Below, piece by piece: positions 1,522 to 54,252 of a DNA stretch of 64,000 bases. The DNA is taken from sequence record NC_031934.1; one strand, 5' to 3'. The DNA is from Escherichia phage MX01. A model generated the notes under the pieces. It was not told the origin of the DNA and made no database searches. It was given only the letters and a program-made list of their open reading frames with translations. The translations under genes and the position numbers were made by a program. How positions within the stretch are numbered: the first letter of the stretch is position 1; each line of letters begins with the position of its first letter.

Positions 1522-3504
1522 ATGGCTTTATTATCACCGGGCATTGAGCTCAAAGAAACGTCCGTACAGAGTACTGTCGTTCGTAACGCAACGGGTCGTG
1601 CAGCGCTGGTTGGTAAATTCCAGTGGGGCCCTGCTTTCCAGGTAACTCAGATTACTAATGAAGTTGAACTGGTCGACTTATTTGGAGGTCCTAATAACGA
1701 AGTTGCCGATTACTTCATGTCGGGTATGAACTTCCTCCAGTATGGTAACGACCTTCGTACTGTTCGTGTTGTTAACCGTGAATTCGCTAAAAACGCATCT
1801 CCGGTAGCAGGTAACGTCCAAACCACTATTACTACTGCAGGTTCTAACTATGCGGTAGGCGATAAAATTAATATCAAATATAACCAGACTGTTGTTGAAT
1901 CTGAAGGTCGTGTAACTTCGGTTGATACCGACGGTAAAATTATGTCGGTGTTTATTCCTACCGGCAAGATTATTTCTTATGCTCGTTCTGTTAACCAATA
2001 TCCAGACCTTGGCGCTGCGTGGACTGCTGAAGTAACTTCTGCCTCTTCAGGTGTTTCTGGTACTATTACTGTCGGTAAAATCGTAACCGATTCCGGTATT
2101 CTGTTGACTGAAGCAGAGAACAGTGAAGAAGCTATTACTTCCCTAGAATTCCAAGCATCTCTTAAACAGTTTGGTATGCCTGGTGTAGTTGCTCTTTATC
2201 CTGGCGAAATTGGTAGTACTCTGGAAGTTGAAATTGTTTCTAAAGCGGCTTATGATGCAGGTTCTACTAAAATGTTGGATATTTATCCAAATGGCGGTAC
2301 TCGTGCTTCTGTAGCTAAAGCGGTATTCAACTACGGACCTCAGACCGATAACCAGTACGCTATTATTGTTCGTCGTGACGGTGCAATCGTAGAATCCGTC
2401 GTACTTTCTACCAAAGAAGGCGAAAAAGACGTTTACGGTAATAACATCTATCTGGATGATTATTTCGCTAAAGGTACTTCGAACTATATCTTCGCTACCT
2501 CGCTGAACTGGCCAGCCGGTTTTAGTGGTATCATTAATCTTATGGGTGGTGTATCTGCTAACGACCAGGTTACTGCAGGTGATTTGATGCAGGGTTGGGA
2601 TTTGTTCGCCGACCGTGAAGCACTCCATATTAACCTTTTGATTGCTGGTGCTGTTGCCGGTGAAGGTGATGAAGTTGCTTCTACCGTCCAGAAACACGTT
2701 GTTAGTATTGCTGATGAACGTCAGGATTGCTTAGCATTTATTTCTCCTCCTAAAGGACTGTTGGTTAACGTTCCATTGACTCGTGCAGTAGATAATCTTA
2801 TCGACTGGCGTACCGGTGCAGGTACTTTCGATGCCAACAACATGAACATTAGCACCACTTATGCTGCTATTGATGGTAACTATAAATATCAGTATGACAA
2901 ATATAATGACGTAAACCGTTGGGTGCCTCTGGCCGCTGATATGGCTGGTTTGTGTGCGCGTACAGATGATGTTTCTCAGCCTTGGATGTCTCCGGCCGGT
3001 TATAACCGTGGTCAGATTCTTAACGTTCTGAAATTGGCAATTGAACCACGTCAAGCTCAACGTGACCGCATGTACCAAGAAGCTATTAACCCGGTTGTCG
3101 GTTTTGCTGGTGGTGATGGATTCGTATTGTTTGGTGATAAGACTGCAACTAAAGTTCCATCTCCGATGGACCACATTAACGTTCGCCGTCTGTTCAACAT
3201 GCTTAAGAAAAATATCGGTGATGCCTCTAAATATAAGCTGTTTGAATTGAACGACAACTTCACTCGTTCAAGCTTCCGTATGGAAGTTTCTCAGTATTTA
3301 GATGGTATTAAGGCACTTGGTGGGATTTATGAAGGACGTGTGGTTTGTGATACTACGGTGAACACCCCTGCGGTTATCGACCGTAATGAGTTTATTGCTA
3401 ATATCTATGTTAAACCTTCTCGTTCTATTAACTACATCACGTTGAACTTCGTCGCAACGAGCACTGGTGCTGATTTTGATGAATTGATTGGACCTTTAGT
3501 ATAA
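1522..3504 (+). CDS. 18: Tail sheath protein gp18
   Basis: 660 aa; N-terminus MALLSPGIELKETSVQSTVVRNATGRAALVGKFQWGP matches T4 gp18; GAGGA RBS upstream; TATAAATA late box at 1485-1492. Confidence 0.97.
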   Translation: MALLSPGIELKETSVQSTVVRNATGRAALVGKFQWGPAFQVTQITNEVELVDLFGGPNNEVADYFMSGMNFLQYGNDLRTVRVVNREFAKNASPVAGNVQTTITTAGSNYAVGDKINIKYNQTVVESEGRVTSVDTDGKIMSVFIPTGKIISYARSVNQYPDLGAAWTAEVTSASSGVSGTITVGKIVTDSGILLTEAENSEEAITSLEFQASLKQFGMPGVVALYPGEIGSTLEVEIVSKAAYDAGSTKMLDIYPNGGTRASVAKAVFNYGPQTDNQYAIIVRRDGAIVESVVLSTKEGEKDVYGNNIYLDDYFAKGTSNYIFATSLNWPAGFSGIINLMGGVSANDQVTAGDLMQGWDLFADREALHINLLIAGAVAGEGDEVASTVQKHVVSIADERQDCLAFISPPKGLLVNVPLTRAVDNLIDWRTGAGTFDANNMNISTTYAAIDGNYKYQYDKYNDVNRWVPLAADMAGLCARTDDVSQPWMSPAGYNRGQILNVLKLAIEPRQAQRDRMYQEAINPVVGFAGGDGFVLFGDKTATKVPSPMDHINVRRLFNMLKKNIGDASKYKLFELNDNFTRSSFRMEVSQYLDGIKALGGIYEGRVVCDTTVNTPAVIDRNEFIANIYVKPSRSINYITLNFVATSTGADFDELIGPLV

Positions 3505-7988: not shown

Positions 7989-9548
7989 ATGAAAAAGAAT
8001 GCATTAGTTCAAAAATGGTCCGCTCTGCTGGAAAACGAAGCCCTTCCTGAAATCGTGGGTGCTTCTAAACAAGCTATCATCGCTAAAATTTTCGAAAACC
8101 AGGAACAAGACATCCTGACTGCCCCGGAATACCGTGATGAAAAAATCTCTGAAGCATTTGGTTCTTTCCTGACCGAAGCTGAAATTGGTGGTGACCACGG
8201 TTATGATGCTACCAATATCGCAGCTGGCCAGACTTCTGGTGCTGTAACTCAGATTGGGCCGGCAGTAATGGGTATGGTTCGTCGTGCTATTCCTCATCTG
8301 ATTGCTTTTGATATTTGTGGTGTTCAGCCTCTGAATAACCCTACCGGCCAGGTATTTGCCCTTCGTGCAGTTTATGGTAAAGACCCTATCGCTGCTGGCG
8401 CTAAAGAAGCTTTCCATCCGATGTATTCTCCGGACTCTATGTTCTCTGGTCAGGGTGCTGCTGAATCTTTCGAAGCACTGGCTGCAAGCAAAGTTCTGGA
8501 AGTTGGTAAAATTTATTCTCACTTCTTCGAAGCTACCGGTGCTGCACACTTCCAGGCAGTTGAAGCCGTAACCGTTGATGCTGCTGCTACTGATGCCGCT
8601 AAACTGGATGTTGCTGTTACCGCTTTGATTGAAGCTGGTAAGTTGGCTGAAATCGCTGAAGGTATGGCTACTTCTATCGCTGAACTTCAGGAAGGCTTTA
8701 ACGGTTCCCAGGATAACCCGTGGAACGAAATGGGCTTCCGCATCGACAAACAAGTTATCGAAGCTAAATCCCGTCAGCTGAAAGCAAGCTATTCTATCGA
8801 ACTGGCACAGGACCTTCGTGCAGTACACGGTATGGATGCAGACGCTGAACTGTCCGGTATCCTTGCTACCGAAATTATGCTCGAAATCAACCGTGAAGTT
8901 ATCGATTGGATTAACTACTCTGCACAGGTTGGTAAATCTGGCCAGACTCAGACCGTTGGTTCTAAAGCTGGTGTGTTTGACTTCCAGGACCCGATTGATA
9001 TCCGTGGTGCTCGTTGGGCCGGTGAGAGCTTTAAAGCCCTTCTGTTCCAGATTGATAAAGAAGCAGCCGAAATCGCTCGTCAGACCGGTCGTGGTGCTGG
9101 TAACTTCATCATCGCTTCCCGTAACGTAGTTAACGTACTGGCTGCAGTTGATACTTCTGTAAGTTATGCAGCTCAAGGTCTGGGTCAAGGTTTCAACGTT
9201 GACACAACCAAAGCAGTATTTGCCGGTGTTCTTGGTGGTAAATATCGCGTTTACATCGACCAGTATGCACGTTCCGATTACTTCACCATCGGTTATAAAG
9301 GCGCTAACGAAATGGACGCAGGTATCTACTACGCTCCGTACGTTGCACTGACCCCGCTGCGTGGTTCCGATCCGAAGAACTTCCAACCGGTAATGGGCTT
9401 CAAAACTCGTTACGGTATCGGTATCAACCCGTTCGCTGACCCGTCTGCACAGGCTCCTACCAAACGTATTCAGAGCGGTATGCCTGACATCGTTAACAGC
9501 CTTGGTCTGAATGGTTACTTTAGACGCGTCTACGTTAAAGGAATTTAA
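7989..9548 (+). CDS. 23: Major capsid protein gp23
   Basis: 519 aa; sequence recognisable as T4 gp23; late box at 7841-7848; strong terminator hairpin downstream. Confidence 0.98.
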   Translation: MKKNALVQKWSALLENEALPEIVGASKQAIIAKIFENQEQDILTAPEYRDEKISEAFGSFLTEAEIGGDHGYDATNIAAGQTSGAVTQIGPAVMGMVRRAIPHLIAFDICGVQPLNNPTGQVFALRAVYGKDPIAAGAKEAFHPMYSPDSMFSGQGAAESFEALAASKVLEVGKIYSHFFEATGAAHFQAVEAVTVDAAATDAAKLDVAVTALIEAGKLAEIAEGMATSIAELQEGFNGSQDNPWNEMGFRIDKQVIEAKSRQLKASYSIELAQDLRAVHGMDADAELSGILATEIMLEINREVIDWINYSAQVGKSGQTQTVGSKAGVFDFQDPIDIRGARWAGESFKALLFQIDKEAAEIARQTGRGAGNFIIASRNVVNVLAAVDTSVSYAAQGLGQGFNVDTTKAVFAGVLGGKYRVYIDQYARSDYFTIGYKGANEMDAGIYYAPYVALTPLRGSDPKNFQPVMGFKTRYGIGINPFADPSAQAPTKRIQSGMPDIVNSLGLNGYFRRVYVKGI

Positions 9549-9578
9549 TGCTTTAACGTTAAAAATACATAACCTTAT

Positions 9579-9596
9579 GGGAGACTTCGGTCTCCC
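9579..9596. terminator. Intrinsic terminator hairpin after gene 23 (GGGAGAC-TTCG-GTCTCCC), bidirectional at convergent junction
   Basis: 7-bp GC-rich stem, TTCG tetraloop, followed by T-rich tract. Confidence 0.8.
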
Positions 9597-9611
9597 ATTC
9601 TTGTTTCTGTA

Positions 9612-9878
9612 CTATGCAATCTTAACTCGGCGGTTGATGATATCACGGAAGTCAATACGATTTTCTTGGATTTTCAGCCAGTTACCGGATTTGTCTTTGG
9701 TATGGGTAGAATATTCGCCGTTCCACCAGAAATCGGTTTCATAAGCCAGAGCTTCGTATTTCTTAACCAATGCATTAACTGCATTACCATTAGGATTGGT
9801 ACCGAATTTTTCTACCAGAGCTTTGATGTCTTTGTCAAGGTTAGAAAGCGTGGTACGGATAAAGTTTAATTTGTTCAT
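9612..9878 (-). CDS. Hypothetical early protein inserted between genes 23 and 24 (start chosen at second ATG, GAGGAG RBS)
   Basis: ORF on opposite strand to flanking late genes; own GTTTAC-N18-TACTATAGAC promoter upstream (9904-9937); terminator hairpin downstream; no recognisable domain. Confidence 0.5.
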   Translation of the reverse strand: MNKLNFIRTTLSNLDKDIKALVEKFGTNPNGNAVNALVKKYEALAYETDFWWNGEYSTHTKDKSGNWLKIQENRIDFRDIINRRVKIA

Positions 9879-9903
9879 TTTTAATCTCCTCATGTTTTGA
9901 TAG

Positions 9904-9937
9904 GTCTATAGTAACACGACGCTTTTTGTGTGTAAAC
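9904..9937 (-). promoter_or_regulatory. Early sigma70-type promoter (GTTTAC-N18-TACTATAGAC) for ORF 9612..9878
   Basis: Minus-strand GTTTAC and TACTATAGAC elements; same -10 core recurs before other minus-strand early genes. Confidence 0.55.
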
Positions 9938-9943
9938 CACTTT

Positions 9944-9951
9944 TATAAATA
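9944..9951 (+). promoter_or_regulatory. Late promoter box TATAAATA upstream of gene 24
   Basis: Exact TATAAATA about 30 nt upstream of gene 24 ATG. Confidence 0.6.
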
Positions 9952-9980
9952 AAATTATATTCTCAATAAGGAAAATAGCA

Positions 9981-11261
9981 ATGGCTAAAATTAACGACCT
10001 TTTAAAAGAGTCGACCACTACTTCGAGTTCTTCGATTGGTCGTCCAAATTTAGTAGCTTTAACCAGAGCTACGACCAAACTGATTTATACCGACCTTGTA
10101 GCTCAGCAGCGTACTAACCAACCTTTGGCTGCTCTATATGGTATCAAATATCTTACAGAAAAAAACGAATTATCTTTCCAGACAGGTGCTACTTATTCTG
10201 GTGCAGTATCCGCTAAAGACCGTGCCACTATCCCAGTTTTCACAGCAGGTGCTGTTTACGCTAAAGATGATTTGTTCCAATTTGAAAACGTAGTTTATAA
10301 AGCTTTGGTAGCAACACCATTTGCCGGTGCTACTGGTGATGAATACGAACAACTTCAAGAAGCTATTGTTAAATTAACCATTCGTATTATGTCTGACGCC
10401 GCACTGACTGAGCGTTTTGAAGGTCCTCAAGAAGTAGATATCTCTGAAGCCAGATTCATCGTTAATAAATGGAACGCTCCGGTTAAATCCCGTAAGTTGA
10501 AGAGTACTGTTACCGTAGAACTGGCTCAAGACCTCGAAGCAAATGGTTTCGATGCCCCTAATTTCTTGGAAGACCTCCTGGCTACTGAAATGGCTGATGA
10601 AATCAACAAAGATATTCTTCAGTCCCTGGTTACGGTTTCCAAGCGTTATAAAGTTGAAGGTTTGTGTGATGATGGCTTAATTGACCTGAGTTATGCTAAC
10701 TCACCGGAAGCTTCTCGCAAGCTTTATGAAATAGTTTGTGAAATGGTTTCTCATATCCAGCGCGCAACCTCTTATACGGCAACTTATGTAGTAGCGAGTA
10801 CTCGCGTAGCCGCTGTTCTGGCTGGTTCCGGATGGTTAAGACACACCCCACAGAACGACAAATATCTTTCTGCAAATGCATACGGATTCCTGGAAAATGG
10901 TTTGCCTGTGTATTGTGATACCAACACGCCAATTGATTATGTTACTGTAGGTGTTAAAGAGGAATTTGGTGGGAAAGAAGCGGTAGGTTCTTTGTTCTAT
11001 GCGCCGTATACAGAAGGCCTTGATTTGGCTGACCCTGAACATGTGGGTACATTTAAAGTGGTCGTTGACCCTGAAAGCCTGCAACCATCTATTGCATTAA
11101 TGGTTCGTTATGCACTGGCTGCTAACCCTTATACGGTTACTGCTGATGATAAACAAGCCCGTATTATTGATGCGACTAATATGGATTTGATGGCGGGACG
11201 TTCTGATATGTCTGTATTGCTTGGTGTGAAACTTCCTAAAGTTTTGACTGAATTAAACTAA
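9981..11261 (+). CDS. 24: Head vertex protein gp24
   Basis: 426 aa (T4 gp24 427 aa), gp23-like fold paralog at expected position; late box at 9944-9951. Confidence 0.95.
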   Translation: MAKINDLLKESTTTSSSSIGRPNLVALTRATTKLIYTDLVAQQRTNQPLAALYGIKYLTEKNELSFQTGATYSGAVSAKDRATIPVFTAGAVYAKDDLFQFENVVYKALVATPFAGATGDEYEQLQEAIVKLTIRIMSDAALTERFEGPQEVDISEARFIVNKWNAPVKSRKLKSTVTVELAQDLEANGFDAPNFLEDLLATEMADEINKDILQSLVTVSKRYKVEGLCDDGLIDLSYANSPEASRKLYEIVCEMVSHIQRATSYTATYVVASTRVAAVLAGSGWLRHTPQNDKYLSANAYGFLENGLPVYCDTNTPIDYVTVGVKEEFGGKEAVGSLFYAPYTEGLDLADPEHVGTFKVVVDPESLQPSIALMVRYALAANPYTVTADDKQARIIDATNMDLMAGRSDMSVLLGVKLPKVLTELN

Positions 11262-12623: not shown

Positions 12624-12707
12624 AACAATTCTCTCGTTGAGTTGGTAAAACCCATCTTAACATAGAATTTTTAACTTGTAAACAGGAATTTTGTACTTTA
12701 ATGCAAA

Positions 12708-14266: not shown

Positions 14267-14288
14267 CTTGTTGGTGTATAAATATAAC
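14267..14288. promoter_or_regulatory. Divergent late promoter pair: TATAAATA on plus (14267-14274, uvsW) and on minus (14281-14288, inh/hoc)
   Basis: Exact TATAAATA on each strand in the 55-nt divergent intergenic region. Confidence 0.55.
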
Positions 14289-14312
14289 TATATTTATAAC
14301 TGAGAATTACTT

Positions 14313-17910: not shown

Positions 17911-17922
17911 TATTTATAAATA
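17911..17922. promoter_or_regulatory. Overlapping divergent late promoter boxes (TATTTATAAATA): minus box for 26/25, plus box for 51
   Basis: Palindrome-like TATTTATAAATA contains TATAAATA on both strands in the 51-nt divergent intergenic region. Confidence 0.6.
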
Positions 17923-24439: not shown

Positions 24440-24496
24440 AATGTTCTCCTCATGTTTGTGTAAGGTAATAGTACCACATCCTTGTGGTGTTGTAAA

Positions 24497-26620
24497 CTAC
24501 ATTTTGAATTTATTTGATAAAGAAGAGATGTCCAAAGATGCAGCAAGGATTTCCATAGCTTCGTTGCTTTCAGAAACGGATTCATTAACCAAGAATTGAC
24601 TGAATCCATCCATCAGGCGAACTTCACCAGTTTCCATCAAATGGTCACCATCGTAAACAGATTCGCTGAGCTCTGAAGGAGGTGTTACGGTAGCTTCCAT
24701 AAGGTATTTGTGAGATACTCTATCATTCATGGCAAAAGCTGCTACTTTATCAACCTTCAACAATAATCCACGCGGAAGGATAATTTCTGCTTCTTCGGCA
24801 TATTCTGTAAGGTCACCAGGAGCGATAACTTTAACTGCTTCAGCACCTCGAATAACCATACCAATTTCAGCAATTCTATCTGCAGGACCTTCAGGTGCAA
24901 TTGGATTACCAAACTCGTCTTCTTCCCATTCTACCTCTTCATCATCGACTTCACCCACATCAGATGAACTACCGCTAGCCAATTTAAACAACTCATCAGC
25001 GGAGGATAAAGAACCTTCACCACCAACAAAAACGGCTTGGTTGTCGAGGGCCATATAATTTTTACCAAATTCGCCAAAGATGTTAGGCTTTAATGAGGCT
25101 GACACAAAGTTCTTAAAGTAAAATGTTTTGTTATCGATATTATGACGCAGAATTTTGTATGGCAAATCCTGACCACGATACAAAATAGTACCCTTAGGAA
25201 GTTTAATACCCTTAGTAAATGCTGAGTCTAAATCCTTAATCAATTTAATAGCCGTTGTATTGTTTTCGGATTCAGGTTTACCTAAAAGGAACAAGTTCAT
25301 AGGAGCATATTCAGCTGCGCAATATTCAATAATAGCATTGCTTTCGTCTTTGGTTAGGCCCTTAGGTTTAATGAGCTCACCTGAATAAGCATATGCATCA
25401 CTAATAGAATCGTTAATTAGTTTATAAACGGCTTCCATAGCGAAAGCAATTCGGGATGCTTTCTCTGAAGGGGAGCCTTTAAAACGGGTACTCAGGTTAT
25501 TAACAATTTTCTTAATAATATCCAGACTATTGGTTGTATTGATTTGCGAAAGGCCACTTAAAAGTCTATCGACTTCTGTATTAAAAAATGCCATATTATT
25601 AGAGTAAATTTCAAACCCTTGTTTATCTCTATTAGCATAATTTAGTTTAAATTTACTATCAGTCATTAAAGCGTGTGTGAGAGCAATAGTGTATCTAAAG
25701 TTGGCAAGGTCCTCGCTCTTAGATTTAAACTGAGAAGCCTGGCGCATTTTGGTAATAGCACCTTTTTTAAAGTTCTGACTAATCTGTTCAATACCTTCGT
25801 TCTCAGGGCCTTCAGCCGTGTGAACCGGTACAGAAGCTTCAAACTCGTTATAAACCTGCAATTCTTTAGGGGACAAAGTTTCAGGCTCAGCAGTAGAATA
25901 CTGCGCCGCCGCTGCCATACGACGCGAAATCTTAGTACGAGTAATGACAGCCTTATCAGTACGTTTCTCTTCAACTTGTGCAATAGATGCCGCTACGGCT
26001 TCGACCTTACTTACGGCCTGGCCGGTTTTCTTAGAAACATACACTTCGCCAACTTTAGACTCAACTTTAGTATAAAGATCGGCATTAATTTCAGGCATAC
26101 CCTTGATATCTTCAATATTAGCACCACGACGTACTAAAAGAACGTAGGTATGTTTTCCGCTGAATTGGAACATGTCGTCAACAACTTTAAACTTACCACC
26201 GGTACGAGCCATAGCCAAGCGAGCTAATACGCGCTGAACGGTAGGACCTTTACCTTTCATTTTCTTAGTAGGGAAACGGAACAAAACCGCGTCCATTTTA
26301 AGTTTGTTTATTTGTTCATATATGGTATCGAAAATGGTGTTCAGTGTACCGAGTGGATCGGTACCCAAACCACCCTTGAGTTCTGCCGGAGCGCCTTTAG
26401 CAGATAAACTCATTAAGATAACATGGACGTACTTATCACCCGGCTTAACCATTTTAATAGCATCGCCTTCAGACGCGTATGAAACCATACGCGCTACTAA
26501 ATTGTCATTACCAGGAGCATGGACCGCAAAAATCTGCGGTACGCCCGAGCCAGGTTTAAGATTTGTTACTGGGTAATTTTTTTTATCGCTTTTATCAAAA
26601 ACTTCGTTTAAATTTTCCAT
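24497..26620 (-). CDS. alt: Alt-like ADP-ribosyltransferase, paralog 1
   Basis: 707 aa; N-terminal 230 aa conserved with the two neighbours and T4 Alt (PQIF, LSAKG, KLKGGLG, TKVESKVGEVY); C-terminal R-S-E signature YRGQ / FVSASL / EAEIILPRG. Confidence 0.85.
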   Translation of the reverse strand: MENLNEVFDKSDKKNYPVTNLKPGSGVPQIFAVHAPGNDNLVARMVSYASEGDAIKMVKPGDKYVHVILMSLSAKGAPAELKGGLGTDPLGTLNTIFDTIYEQINKLKMDAVLFRFPTKKMKGKGPTVQRVLARLAMARTGGKFKVVDDMFQFSGKHTYVLLVRRGANIEDIKGMPEINADLYTKVESKVGEVYVSKKTGQAVSKVEAVAASIAQVEEKRTDKAVITRTKISRRMAAAAQYSTAEPETLSPKELQVYNEFEASVPVHTAEGPENEGIEQISQNFKKGAITKMRQASQFKSKSEDLANFRYTIALTHALMTDSKFKLNYANRDKQGFEIYSNNMAFFNTEVDRLLSGLSQINTTNSLDIIKKIVNNLSTRFKGSPSEKASRIAFAMEAVYKLINDSISDAYAYSGELIKPKGLTKDESNAIIEYCAAEYAPMNLFLLGKPESENNTTAIKLIKDLDSAFTKGIKLPKGTILYRGQDLPYKILRHNIDNKTFYFKNFVSASLKPNIFGEFGKNYMALDNQAVFVGGEGSLSSADELFKLASGSSSDVGEVDDEEVEWEEDEFGNPIAPEGPADRIAEIGMVIRGAEAVKVIAPGDLTEYAEEAEIILPRGLLLKVDKVAAFAMNDRVSHKYLMEATVTPPSELSESVYDGDHLMETGEVRLMDGFSQFLVNESVSESNEAMEILAASLDISSLSNKFKM

Positions 26621-40544: not shown

Positions 40545-41059
40545 ACACCAAGTTCCTTATAAAGTTCTTCACGGCAAGTTTTAAGGGTTTTACCCGATTC
40601 GTAAGCAACACTTTCAGGAACATCGCCAAGGGTTACTGCGGATTGCATTTGACCGTGACGTTTAGCCGCGTATTCAAAACTTTTCACTAGCTCACGAATA
40701 CGTTCTTTTTCATTATATTCTTCAATGAATTCAGGGTATTCCCAAACCGGACGCATCATACGATACCACTGTTGGATGGTGATATAATTACTTCCATCCA
40801 AATTAATAATCTGCGAAGGCTCAATAGACCCTGGAGCATAAAAAGTTACCTGTCTTACTACATCAATACCGTCCACAATAGCCCAAGCAAAATCGAAAGT
40901 TGCCTTCTTTTCAATTGGCGTGCTTGCACAGGACCCTAGCTTAAGGAGCTTTTGTAATGCAGGAGATTTGACACCTGAAATGTATTCAGGCTTAGCCACA
41001 AAACTGTTATCACGTAAAGTCATAATAATTTCCTCAATTTTTATAATCCGTAGGAGCAT
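40541..41059 (-). CDS. Hypothetical protein (pseT.x slot)
   Basis: 172-aa ORF; true start may be internal. Confidence 0.5.
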
Positions 41060-41190
41060 TATACTCCGCTCCCAAGAGTTTGTAAACTACTTTCCAAAAA
41101 TACCATTTATACACATGCTAAGCACGATTCCAAAACAAAAGCATGTAAAGCCAAATAGAATGACATCCGACCCATCGATACAAGACTCAA

Positions 41191-42327: not shown

Positions 42328-42370
42328 CTCCTCATTAGTTGGTAAGTCTATACTAACACGTCATGAGGAG
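42328..42370 (-). promoter_or_regulatory. Early promoter for alc-like gene with 8-bp inverted repeat CTCCTCAT/ATGAGGAG; downstream arm contains the RBS
   Basis: Minus-strand GTTTAC ... TAGTAT; inverted repeat arms at 42328-42335 and 42363-42370. Confidence 0.55.
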
Positions 42371-42377
42371 ATGTAAA

Positions 42378-43526
42378 CTACTCTACCACAATTTCTTTCA
42401 AATATTTTTCAGGGATTTGGGCCTTATGATTTTTCAAGAACACAGAGTTAATCTGGTCCATGACCGTATCATAATTAATACCGCCTACGTACGCCTGCAT
42501 AAGAATAGAGAACAACCCTGGGAAGTCCTTAAGGATTAATTGACCTGTAACGGCATAGTCTTTACGGTCACGTCCCTTGAGTTGGGAATATGCTGCTTCC
42601 AACAAAGCCAATGATTGTTCTAGGTAATCTAAATGGATACGTTCGAAGGCATCGATTTTCTCGATAGCAAACGAATCCGTACTGAACAGACCACGAAGGT
42701 CATCAGTTCCGCCAGCCACTACAACTTCAAACAAACGTTCGTTATTGTTAATGGAATCTTTGGTATGATGCAGTGCACTGTACCATGCAGTTTTGAGTTT
42801 AAAGAACGTACCATCTTTAAGTACAAAGATGAAACCTTCAATACCCTCTTGTTTACGGATGTTTTCTACGAAATCACCCTCAGAGAGGTCATAGCTTTCA
42901 ACCAAATGCTTACGCAGGGCGCCATCTTTAAACAATTCAGCATACGGAATATATTCACCCGTTTCATTATTACGAACGTTTAACAGGATGAGGTTTGTTT
43001 CTTGGTAAGCCAACACGATACGGTTGGTAGGTGCAACATATTCAAGGTTGCAGGTATACCCGGCTTTGGTGATTTCTTCTAGACGTGCGGCAAAAGCCTC
43101 GTTCTCAGGGAGACGAAGGAAACGTAAAGAATCATGCACCATTGATGAATGGATAGAGCCTTTAGATTTAACAGAAAGATACTGACGGTCCATGAATGTA
43201 GAAATCAGAGAACCATCTTCCTTAGCCATTACGAGGTCGATATTTTCCGGCGACAAATCTAGACCGATAGTCATAGGGTTTTCGTCAAGGTTAAAGAACT
43301 TTTGCATAGGACGAGCAGCAATACGTACTGGACCTTTCTCGTCCATTTCAAACATAATGCCTCGACACTCTAGTGCGCCGTCTTCCAACCAATCACTGTA
43401 CGATGCATAGTTATAACTAAAGATGCGATAGTTGACTCCTAGCGCACTCTGAAAGTCTTTAAAGAAGAACTTAGATTTAGTCGAGTTTTTAACCAGGGCC
43501 ATTAAGTTATCATATAATTCAATCAT
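42378..43526 (-). CDS. rnlA: RNA ligase 1
   Basis: 382 aa; YRIFSYNYASYSDWLEDGALECRGIMFEMD matches T4 Rnl1. Confidence 0.95.
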   Translation of the reverse strand: MIELYDNLMALVKNSTKSKFFFKDFQSALGVNYRIFSYNYASYSDWLEDGALECRGIMFEMDEKGPVRIAARPMQKFFNLDENPMTIGLDLSPENIDLVMAKEDGSLISTFMDRQYLSVKSKGSIHSSMVHDSLRFLRLPENEAFAARLEEITKAGYTCNLEYVAPTNRIVLAYQETNLILLNVRNNETGEYIPYAELFKDGALRKHLVESYDLSEGDFVENIRKQEGIEGFIFVLKDGTFFKLKTAWYSALHHTKDSINNNERLFEVVVAGGTDDLRGLFSTDSFAIEKIDAFERIHLDYLEQSLALLEAAYSQLKGRDRKDYAVTGQLILKDFPGLFSILMQAYVGGINYDTVMDQINSVFLKNHKAQIPEKYLKEIVVE

Positions 43527-49279: not shown

Positions 49280-49320
49280 TCCTTAGTTGATAAGGCTATA
49301 GTATCACTACCATAGCCTGG
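49280..49320 (-). promoter_or_regulatory. Early promoter cassette (GTTTAC-N18-TACTAT) with inverted repeat AGGCTAT/ATAGCCT
   Basis: Arms at 49293-49299 and 49312-49318 flank the -10. Confidence 0.55.
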
Positions 49321-49327
49321 TGTAAAC

Positions 49328-49574: not shown

Positions 49575-49620
49575 AGTTGATAGGTCTATAGTATCATGTT
49601 TAAAGGCGTTGTAAACATTT
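49575..49620 (-). promoter_or_regulatory. Early promoter cassette, near-identical to copy at 50290-50335
   Basis: Shared about 60-nt sequence TTAGTTGATAGGTCTATAGTATCATGTTTAAAGG..TTGTAAAC (plus strand). Confidence 0.55.
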
Positions 49621-50289: not shown

Positions 50290-50335
50290 GTTGATAGGTC
50301 TATAGTATCATGTTTAAAGGTATTGTAAACCATTA
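50290..50335 (-). promoter_or_regulatory. Early promoter cassette, near-identical to copy at 49575-49620
   Basis: Same GTTTACAA-N-TACTATAGACCTATCAACTAAT core on minus strand. Confidence 0.55.
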
Positions 50336-54185: not shown

Positions 54186-54252
54186 ATGAACCTCTGTTCA
54201 AGTAGTTGAGAGGTCCATTATATCATGGGTTTTAAGGAAGTAAACATCTTGC

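Follow-up and report, generated by a model that had tools for sequence, protein, structure and literature searches.

What a small gene on the strand opposite to the major capsid and capsid vertex genes of a T4-like phage is for, and what places it under transcription there, are the questions raised by the interval between genes 23 and 24. The window, i.e., the whole stretch of 64,000 nucleotides that was analysed, contains the head-gene block of such a phage, with genes 21, 22, 23 (plus strand) and 24 (plus strand), and beyond gene 24 it carries rnlB, a small ORF, hoc and inh, all of them on the minus strand. The closest public records belong to Dhakavirus (AnYang, classified as Dhakavirus anyang, KIT01, C6, and fDHCT2), with 95-96% identity over 9400-10100, and the phage is a virulent member of the Tevenvirinae (Dhakavirus, AnYang-like) whose gp23 is 84% identical to that of T4. 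The features of the locus are the following:

7989..9548, plus strand: gene 23, major capsid protein (519-aa ORF; matching records say major capsid or head protein)
9577..9598, no strand assigned: stem-loop ATGGGAGAC-UUCG-GUCUCCCAU, predicted intrinsic terminator of gene 23 on the plus strand (terminator scan)
9612..9878 including the stop, minus strand: 88-aa ORF, PHROG 6003 (E 2e-49, dN/dS, AlphaFold)
9612..9635, minus strand: 3' end of the ORF, candidate empty homing site, adjoining the point of endonuclease insertion in relatives
9886..9891, minus strand: Shine-Dalgarno (SD) sequence GAGGAG, 7 nt upstream of the ATG at 9878 (read from the sequence)
9897..9916, minus strand: extended -10 TG-T-TACTAT plus initial transcribed element AGACCTATCAA (hexamer 9913-9908)
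9931..9937, minus strand: -35 element GTTTACA of a T4-early-type promoter (scan, motif class, alignment)
9944-9951, plus strand: TATAAATA, late promoter of gene 24, lying back-to-back with the early one
9981..11261, plus strand: gene 24, capsid vertex protein (426-aa ORF; matching records say capsid or head vertex protein)

The late promoter motif TATAAATA is present in 17 copies in the window, against 6.3 expected, and the copy preceding gene 24 lies 6 nt from the -35 hexamer of the opposite strand and approximately 30 nt from the gene 24 ATG. It is kept in every locus aligned in this study and also in the phages in which the slot between genes 23 and 24 is empty. An earlier reading made from the letters of the window (the sequence-only reading) had placed the 88-aa gene back-to-back with this late promoter, in agreement with these distances. 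At the other end of the interval, the hairpin begins 13 nt past the stop of the minus-strand ORF, folds with -18.2 kcal/mol on the plus strand and -19 kcal/mol on the minus strand (z about -5 to -5.6), is followed by a T-rich tail on the plus strand, and has an equivalent in RB14 and Mexia, two phages with an empty slot. The sequence that comes after it on the minus strand is AUAAGGUUAUG, which contains no U-run; a U-run is present after the hairpin on the ORF strand in VR7, and the Gaprivervirus hairpin is a good bidirectional terminator. With regard to the insulation of the ORF by the gene 23 terminator, proposed in the sequence-only reading, the hairpin is stable and is a canonical terminator for gene 23 but has no T-run on the ORF strand in this phage. 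In addition, the Rfam search over 9400-10100 returned only a sub-threshold match to PhrS (17.6 vs. 37 bits).

Early-type promoter of the antisense gene

The early promoters of T4 have a -35 element GTTTAC(A), a spacer of 17+/-1 nt and a -10 element TAnnnT with an upstream TG, and they are preceded by A/T-rich sequence. Each of these was found ahead of the ORF, i.e., the -35 element, the spacer, the TG/-10 element and the A/T-rich stretch, TTTTATTTATAAAAGTG, upstream of the -35. In the scan, TTTACA begins at 9936 and is separated by 17 nt from TACTAT, which ends at 9908 and has the TG of an extended -10; the start site is predicted near 9899-9902. The promoter had been described in the sequence-only reading as GTTTAC-N18-TACTAT, which is the same site shifted by one base. 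It must be noted that a generic sigma-70 scan of the 700-nt region gave 2 sites vs. 1.9 expected, without enrichment. By contrast, the class-specific motif GTTTAC-N16-18-TAnnAT was found nine times in the 64-kb window, always on the minus strand, vs. 0.85 expected, and all nine members precede an ATG, most of them with a recognisable SD. The 20-mer TGnTACTATAGACCTATCAA, comprising the extended -10 and the initial transcribed sequence, occurs in 5 copies vs. 0.02 expected, every one of them upstream of a minus-strand SD and ATG. Given that this 20-mer recurs five times, the promoter is one of several copies of a regulatory unit that is repeated in the phage.

The region from the ORF ATG to the gene 24 ATG was aligned for ten loci, from Dhakavirus, Gaprivervirus, Mosigvirus, Tequatrovirus (T4) and two metagenome contigs. 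The conserved blocks in these ten loci were the gene 24 ribosome-binding site (RBS), TATAAATA, (G)TTTACA, TG-n-TAyTAT and GGAG-ATG. TTTACA was invariant in nine of the ten, including T4 upstream of segD, and was replaced by TGTACA in contig P0019ctg, while the promoter spacer, of 16-17 nt, varied freely. Fixed hexamers around a variable spacer are the footprint that would be expected of a functional sigma-70 promoter. The significance of the promoter thus comes from its class-specific motif and its cross-genus footprint, and not from the generic scan. As judged from sequence, it is a member of the early-promoter class of this genome and is conserved across genera.

The sequence-only reading had stated that this slot holds segD in T4, and segD was indeed found there, on the minus strand. 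Upstream of it are ATTTACA, a 17-nt spacer ending in TGA, and TATTAT, located directly behind the late promoter of gene 24. Their register matches that of the promoter in the window, and the 5'UTR is similar. A review published in 2010 indicated that no segD-specific promoter could be found and that the transcript was probably vanishingly low (PMC2988022), and in the supplement of a time-resolved omics study segD RNA was early and the protein middle, SegD peptides being quantified (PMC9697503). The location of T4 segD behind a conserved early-type promoter agrees with this early RNA and with the detected protein (PMC9697503), and such a promoter would correct a statement in the T4 homing-endonuclease literature. 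These segD data are the sole experimental evidence on early transcription of the slot and extend to the window only through homology (PMC9697503). In the phage studied here, transcription from the ORF promoter would be expected from its promoter class and from the case of T4 segD.

Coding constraint and predicted fold of the 88-aa product

The ORF was listed as 9612..9893 (minus strand), with 93 aa from an upstream ATG at 9893, and the 88-aa form begins at the ATG at 9878-9876; public annotations are divided between the two starts. We consider the 88-aa start to be correct since its N-terminus is invariant in the family (M1, K3, F6), the SD lies at 7 nt and the upstream ATG is unconserved in other genera. 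The GGAG of the SD is conserved across all aligned family loci. The length of 88 aa given in the sequence-only reading is therefore preferred to 93 aa on account of the SD and of the family-wide conservation of the N-terminus. Among Dhakavirus-type alleles, dN/dS ranged from 0.03 to 0.13, with dS up to 0.79 and dN not above 0.057 (within-genus dN/dS of approximately 0.06). The ORF is a genuine gene that codes for a protein, and the purifying selection acting on it is strong.

The protein has 10.3 kDa and is basic (pI 9.5), and a pI of approximately 9.5 was found in all clades examined. AlphaFold2, run with a 19-sequence alignment, gave a model with pLDDT 92.1 and pTM 0.76, whose elements (H3-25, H31-48, E52-61, E67-71, H77-87) form a helix-helix-beta-hairpin-helix. 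The same topology was predicted for the Mosigvirus-type homologue, which is 31-32% identical (pLDDT 93.9), and a TM of 0.90 was obtained on superposition with an independent model, that of BFVD for the homologue from the Acinetobacter phage. The positions invariant in the family are M1, K3, F6, N30-G31-N32, A45, and Q71, of which N30-G31-N32 would form the loop and N-cap joining helices 1 and 2. The Trp/Tyr-rich segment pointed out from the sequence is present and corresponds to the beta-hairpin of the predicted fold. According to these models, the product folds confidently as a compact helix-helix-beta-hairpin-helix domain without detectable relatives of known function.

The absence of a recognisable domain, also anticipated in the sequence-only reading, was borne out by a best Pfam E of 0.12 and by nothing useful in NCBIfam or PADLOC. 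With the protein and all 19 family members, Pfam returned only sub-threshold noise (DUF5380 with E 0.075-0.12, DUF4859, Ca_bind_SSO6904); NCBIfam gave a single meaningless match of 12.7 bits, and PADLOC searched with the 88-aa protein gave none. The best match of the PDB sequence profile (E 0.12) was to designed three-helix bundles. The protein showed neither a GIY-YIG or other nuclease motif or match, nor sequence or fold similarity to a characterised anti-defence inhibitor, and it has no paralogues within the window. A split-endonuclease origin of the ORF was considered and rejected. Literature searches found no paper on this ORF, and the peptide was absent from the supplements of one accessory-gene screen.

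Slot polymorphism and SegD-type homing

In a tblastn search of 50,697 phage records, the window protein matched 129 records and a Mosigvirus-type query matched 238, and about 240 phage records carry the gene with the label hypothetical. Relative to the protein of the window, identity was 92-100% in Dhakavirus, approximately 61-65% in Gaprivervirus (VR7, SP18) and approximately 31-35% for the native Mosigvirus type. The only non-T-even phage found by tblastn was Acinetobacter phage ABPH49, with a homologue 41% identical. Proteins 100% identical to that of the window are annotated in AnYang, KIT01, and C6 and are also encoded in the unannotated record Ec2-ASingh. A family HMM run against 1.84 billion cluster representatives gave just nine matches, about five of which are genuine full-length members, and on this account the family is considered small and phage-restricted. 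Three candidate relatives were rejected: P0025 and P0026 are long repetitive proteins matched over a short stretch, and P0023 looks like a chimeric metagenome ORF.

All the T-even and T-even-like contigs examined have the gene on the opposite strand between genes 23 and 24. Long one-strand arrays of small ORFs of unknown function surround the homologue in ABPH49 and in two metagenome contigs related to it. Both metagenome contigs have a sigma-70-like site approximately 50 nt upstream of it, and in ABPH49 the sole upstream site of this type is approximately 255 nt away with a terminator-like hairpin between. This non-T-even context is typical of early-region architecture. When the window was compared with Mosigvirus TU01, identity was 31% for the ORF vs. 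83% for gp23 and 67% for gp24; on these figures, the ORF diverges much faster between genera than its two neighbours.

The comparison of the 23/24 intergenic content across relatives, which had been proposed together with the sequence-only reading, was carried out by distant blastn, for which the flanking sequences of genes 23 and 24 served as queries, and revealed four slot states, i.e., empty, ORF, segD, and ORF plus segD. The slot is empty in RB14 and many other Tequatrovirus phages as well as in Klebsiella phage Mexia and its relatives, where the spacer of approximately 82 nt consists only of the terminator hairpin and TATAAATA, with neither GTAAAC nor an antisense promoter (RB14, Mexia). 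The ORF alone occupies the 432-nt spacer of the window, segD alone the 812 nt of T4, and both genes are present in IME08 and mobillu. Since the empty slots lack both the promoter and the ORF, these behave as one insertable unit, and since many T4-type phages have an empty slot or segD alone, the cassette is dispensable for these phages as a group. The empty slots of RB14 and Mexia support the view, taken in the sequence-only reading, of an accessory gene inserted antisense between two late genes. The insertion is neither recent nor unique, the ORF being long-standing in Dhakavirus, Gaprivervirus, and Mosigvirus. No flanking direct or inverted repeats suggesting transposition were found.

The window has no SegD-like or GIY-YIG ORF between 9548 and 9981; such genes are present in relatives only. 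Among the 85 records with a Dhakavirus-type ORF 3' end, an ORF-endonuclease junction was found in 38, and the other 47 are without endonuclease. In mobillu and IME08, the endonuclease ATG lies 3-4 nt after the ORF stop, so that the gene would be co-transcribed from the ORF promoter. The endonuclease of these relatives shows, along its full length, 58% identity to T4 SegD, and it has a weak match to the Pfam family SegE_GIY-YIG. In mobillu, a Mosigvirus, identity to TU01 is at least 98% across gene 24 and the promoter; within the ORF 5'UTR the sequence switches to a segment with 97% identity to the window ORF plus the endonuclease gene, and it reverts to the TU01 type approximately 30 nt inside gene 23. 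The native Mosigvirus allele has thereby been replaced by a 31%-identical Dhakavirus allele. The donor patch, of approximately 1 kb, bears the signature of homing with co-conversion of flanking markers, and a transplanted Dhakavirus ORF plus endonuclease patch of about the same size (~1 kb) is found in some Mosigvirus genomes. A SegD-type GIY-YIG homing endonuclease, whose gene is frequently located right after the ORF, has carried the ORF between genera.

As regards the target of this enzyme, the endonuclease-carrying alleles show seven clustered, mostly synonymous changes in the last ~20 nt of the ORF, and alignments between endonuclease-free and endonuclease-carrying alleles break 10-19 nt before the ORF stop. 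The clustering of these seven changes at the 3' end of the ORF suggests that, in endonuclease-free genomes, the recognition site of the SegD-like enzyme overlaps approximately 9600-9635 of the window.

Function of the product

The explanation that we favour, and that on balance probably holds as a whole, is that of an antisense early accessory cassette whose product is directed at the host or a competitor and which is subject to SegD-type homing. The cassette is self-contained, with a sigma-70-type T4-early promoter, a short 5'UTR, a strong RBS and the 88-codon ORF, and its transcription by host RNA polymerase would take place within minutes of the onset of infection. The protein, which is small and basic, may act stoichiometrically by binding a macromolecule of the host or of a competing element, as an accessory factor in host takeover or counter-defence and not as a component of the virion or of replication. 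The hairpin after gene 23 would limit, perhaps incompletely, read-through into antisense gene 23, and in endonuclease-free phages the 3' end of the ORF together with the spacer beyond it could serve as the homing site for SegD-like enzymes. The 88-aa product is most likely a non-essential early protein acting on the host. A host or competitor target is the likeliest because of the patchy distribution, the early-region context in an unrelated lineage, the intergenus divergence and the association with a mobile endonuclease. The explanation stays generic because profile, PDB, Rfam, paralogue, and literature searches gave no functional lead. A more specific version, in which the protein would be the founding member of a family with a new fold, consisting of early effectors by which a host defence or an essential factor of the host is neutralised, with particular alleles actively spread by SegD-type homing, is possible but doubtful; if true, it would represent endonuclease-driven dissemination of a counter-defence gene among T-even genera.

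Three observations run against the host-directed reading. The peptide is missing from the supplements of the accessory-gene screen mentioned above, purifying selection as strong as that found within the genus (dN/dS ~0.06) is not what an ongoing arms race would leave, although intergenus divergence is large, and the conserved basic pI (~9.5) suits phage-directed nucleic-acid binding equally well. The protein might accordingly be a small basic regulator or chaperone of early phage transcription or of RNA or DNA metabolism, as its predicted helical architecture with a protruding beta-hairpin would allow. The same within-genus selection is in line with such a role, and the 31%-identical alleles seem able to replace each other in Mosigvirus backbones, as would suit a conserved phage or universal target. 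We nevertheless regard this as unlikely, given the lack of similarity to any DNA- or RNA-binding fold or family, the absence of the gene from most Tequatrovirus and Klebsiella T4-like phages having the same core machinery, and its presence in an unrelated Acinetobacter myovirus lineage. Alternatively, the ORF could be tied to the homing endonuclease, as a landing pad, as a protective or regulatory partner of SegD, or as a hitch-hiker containing the homing site. Where present, the endonuclease always begins 3-4 nt past the ORF stop behind a promoter common to both genes, the ORF 3' end is recoded in the alleles carrying it, and the ORF has been co-converted across genera. However, 47 of the 85 Dhakavirus-type copies and the sampled Mosigvirus-type (TU01) and Gaprivervirus loci are without the enzyme, as are the surroundings of the Acinetobacter-type homologues; T4 SegD occurs without the ORF; and hitch-hiking alone leaves the dN/dS of ~0.06 unexplained, all of which makes this relationship distinctly improbable as the reason for the gene.

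The antisense transcription might itself be what is selected, as an 'anti-late' RNA or as a promoter or insulator silencing genes 23 and 24 early in infection, with the ORF as secondary cargo. The empty-slot phages manage without any antisense promoter, the bidirectional terminator of Gaprivervirus would stop the antisense RNA, and the ORF shows strong protein-level constraint and a confident predicted fold; this possibility is thus very slight, even though the promoter register is constant whatever the cargo (ORF, ORF plus segD, or segD alone in T4) and the lack of a U-run on the ORF strand of the hairpin makes read-through into antisense gene 23 plausible in this phage. In all T-even members the gene is flanked by those of the major capsid and vertex proteins, a position that would also suit an accessory factor of capsid assembly, sited there because it acts on these proteins. 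This we consider highly improbable, and a capsid-related role was rejected on the grounds of the opposite strand and the early instead of late promoter, of the patchy presence (the gene is absent from many phages with ~84-97% identical gp23), and of the context in the other phage lineage, where the homologue lies among early-type small ORFs far from capsid genes. All these rivals are less well supported than the host-directed reading, and the role in capsid assembly is the weakest of them.

Comparison with known systems

PHROG 6003, JS98 orf173, and VR7ORF190c are members of the same family over the full length and are annotated as hypothetical proteins; the PHROG 6003 match (E 2.2e-49) aligns residues 1-88 with positions 1-88 of the 90 in the profile. 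The finding was correctly read and is real, but it concerns an ordinary accessory gene whose identical proteins are already deposited as hypothetical. The locus is thus one more uncharacterised small early gene of a T4-like phage, to which the endonuclease co-conversion and the promoter of T4 segD add modest interest. It is also a compact test case, i.e., a cassette of one dispensable gene whose promoter is defined and whose predicted fold is new and confident. Natural isogenic-like variants exist (empty, ORF, segD, and ORF plus segD), together with a documented cross-genus allele replacement, so that a host-range or defence phenotype could be easily tested, and the locus can be used for mapping the SegD target site.

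The term moron was coined for temperate phages (the Hendrix/Juhala concept), and its application to this gene in the sequence-only reading is partly justified. As in a moron, genes that are adjacent in relatives are separated by an additional gene, which has a promoter of its own, shows presence/absence polymorphism and is bounded by a terminator hairpin. Nevertheless, the part of the concept linked to temperate phages does not apply, as the phage is virulent, with neither expression from a repressed prophage nor a role in lysogenic conversion, and the terminator is common with gene 23 and non-canonical on the ORF strand. With the T4 segD locus, the window has in common the slot, the antisense orientation, the promoter register and the similar 5'UTR, and a SegD orthologue lies directly behind the 88-aa ORF in IME08, mobillu, and 36 other records; the window, however, has no endonuclease gene and T4 has no 88-aa ORF.

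The closest established concept is that of the early-promoter/ORFan cassettes of T4-type phages known as PeSL (PMC2839356). These promoter-early stem-loops were defined in RB49/phi1 and not in Dhakavirus (Arbiol et al., 2010; PMC2839356). As in PeSL, a strong sigma-70-like early promoter with A/T-rich upstream sequence directly precedes a small gene of unknown function, near-identical copies of the promoter unit recur around the genome, and there is presence/absence polymorphism among close relatives. The locus differs in having no built-in stem-loop: 9895-9945 (minus strand) of the window folds with -6.7 kcal/mol (z -0.68), 44 of 200 shuffles folding as well, and the sole hairpin, that of the gene 23 terminator, is located at the end of the ORF away from the promoter. 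It differs also in that its mobility is better explained by endonuclease homing than by the recombination between promoter repeats.

Endonuclease-linked exchange in the slot between genes 23 and 24

Comparison with window 9520-9900 revealed that mobillu, a Mosigvirus, harbors a Dhakavirus-type patch of about 1 kb (L006, ~2470-3500) in a backbone that otherwise resembles that of the Mosigvirus TU01. The patch spans the 88-aa ORF, a SegD-like endonuclease gene, a terminator and the 3'-terminal ~30 nt of gene 23, and it has replaced the native Mosigvirus allele, which is 31% identical. Such a replacement is the signature of homing co-conversion across genera. In addition, over the final ~20 nt of the ORF, the endonuclease-carrying alleles of IME08 (L002) and mobillu showed a cluster of seven differences from the window, most of them synonymous. 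Window 9612-9635 (minus strand) in the endonuclease-free phage is therefore a candidate recognition or cleavage site for a SegD-like enzyme.

The adjacent gene 24 (window 9981-11261) was present as a single copy, as in AnYang and fDHCT2, while tandem, diverged duplicates were found in IME08, VR7 and two metagenome contigs (comparison with L002 4251-6815, L003 and L009). The window gene was only 68 and 52% identical to 24a and 24b of IME08, respectively, beside a gp23 identity of 97%. Copy number and low identity thus indicate that the vertex-protein locus is a mosaic.

Start codon and distant relatives of the ORF

The start codon (window 9876-9893) is inconsistently annotated in public records, giving a protein of 93 aa in AnYang, IME08 and Bp7 and of 88 aa in JS98, VR5, fDHCT2 and mobillu. 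Both conservation and the position of the Shine-Dalgarno (SD) sequence favour the 88-aa form.

Outside the T-even phages, the sole homologues were located in Acinetobacter phage ABPH49 (L004 4001-4267) and in loci L013 and L014. There, they lie among small unknown ORFs that form long arrays on a single strand of myovirus-like genomes of ~150 kb. The Dhakavirus type was closer to the ABPH49 protein (41%) than to the Mosigvirus type (32%), which hints at horizontal transfer between unrelated phages. Among the profile matches, P0023 (160 aa, metagenome) resembled the ORF almost perfectly over 32 aa (KALVKKYETMAYATDFWWNGEYSTHTKD), whereas the sequence joined to this segment was unrelated; the protein is probably a chimera produced by assembly or gene calling. 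Two long repetitive proteins, P0025 and P0026, were rejected as spurious matches.

Promoters in the window and upstream of T4 segD

Eight more early-type promoters were identified, all of them on the minus strand. Each is followed by an ATG, and an SD can be recognised at most of them.

Further early-type promoters (GTTTAC-N16-18-TAnnAT)
12654-12683, minus
24468-24497, minus
41058-41087, minus
42350-42378, minus
49298-49327, minus
49588-49616, minus
50302-50330, minus
54217-54245, minus

In half of them (4/8), the 20-mer TGnTACTATAGACCTATCAA recurred almost unchanged; as a repeated promoter/5'UTR unit, it could be a substrate for recombination. Separately, TATAAATA late-promoter motifs occurred on both strands, back-to-back or overlapping, at 14277-14298 and 17911-17922, suggesting divergent late promoters at these two intergenic sites.

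In T4, segD was described as lacking a promoter in a 2010 review (PMC2988022); a 2022 omics supplement classed its RNA as early and reported detection of the SegD protein (PMC9697503). The T4 gene is preceded by ATTTACA-N17(..TGA)-TATTAT (L008, NC_000866, 3233-3324, minus strand), a promoter-like site that immediately follows the late promoter of gene 24 and occupies the same register as the early promoter of the window.
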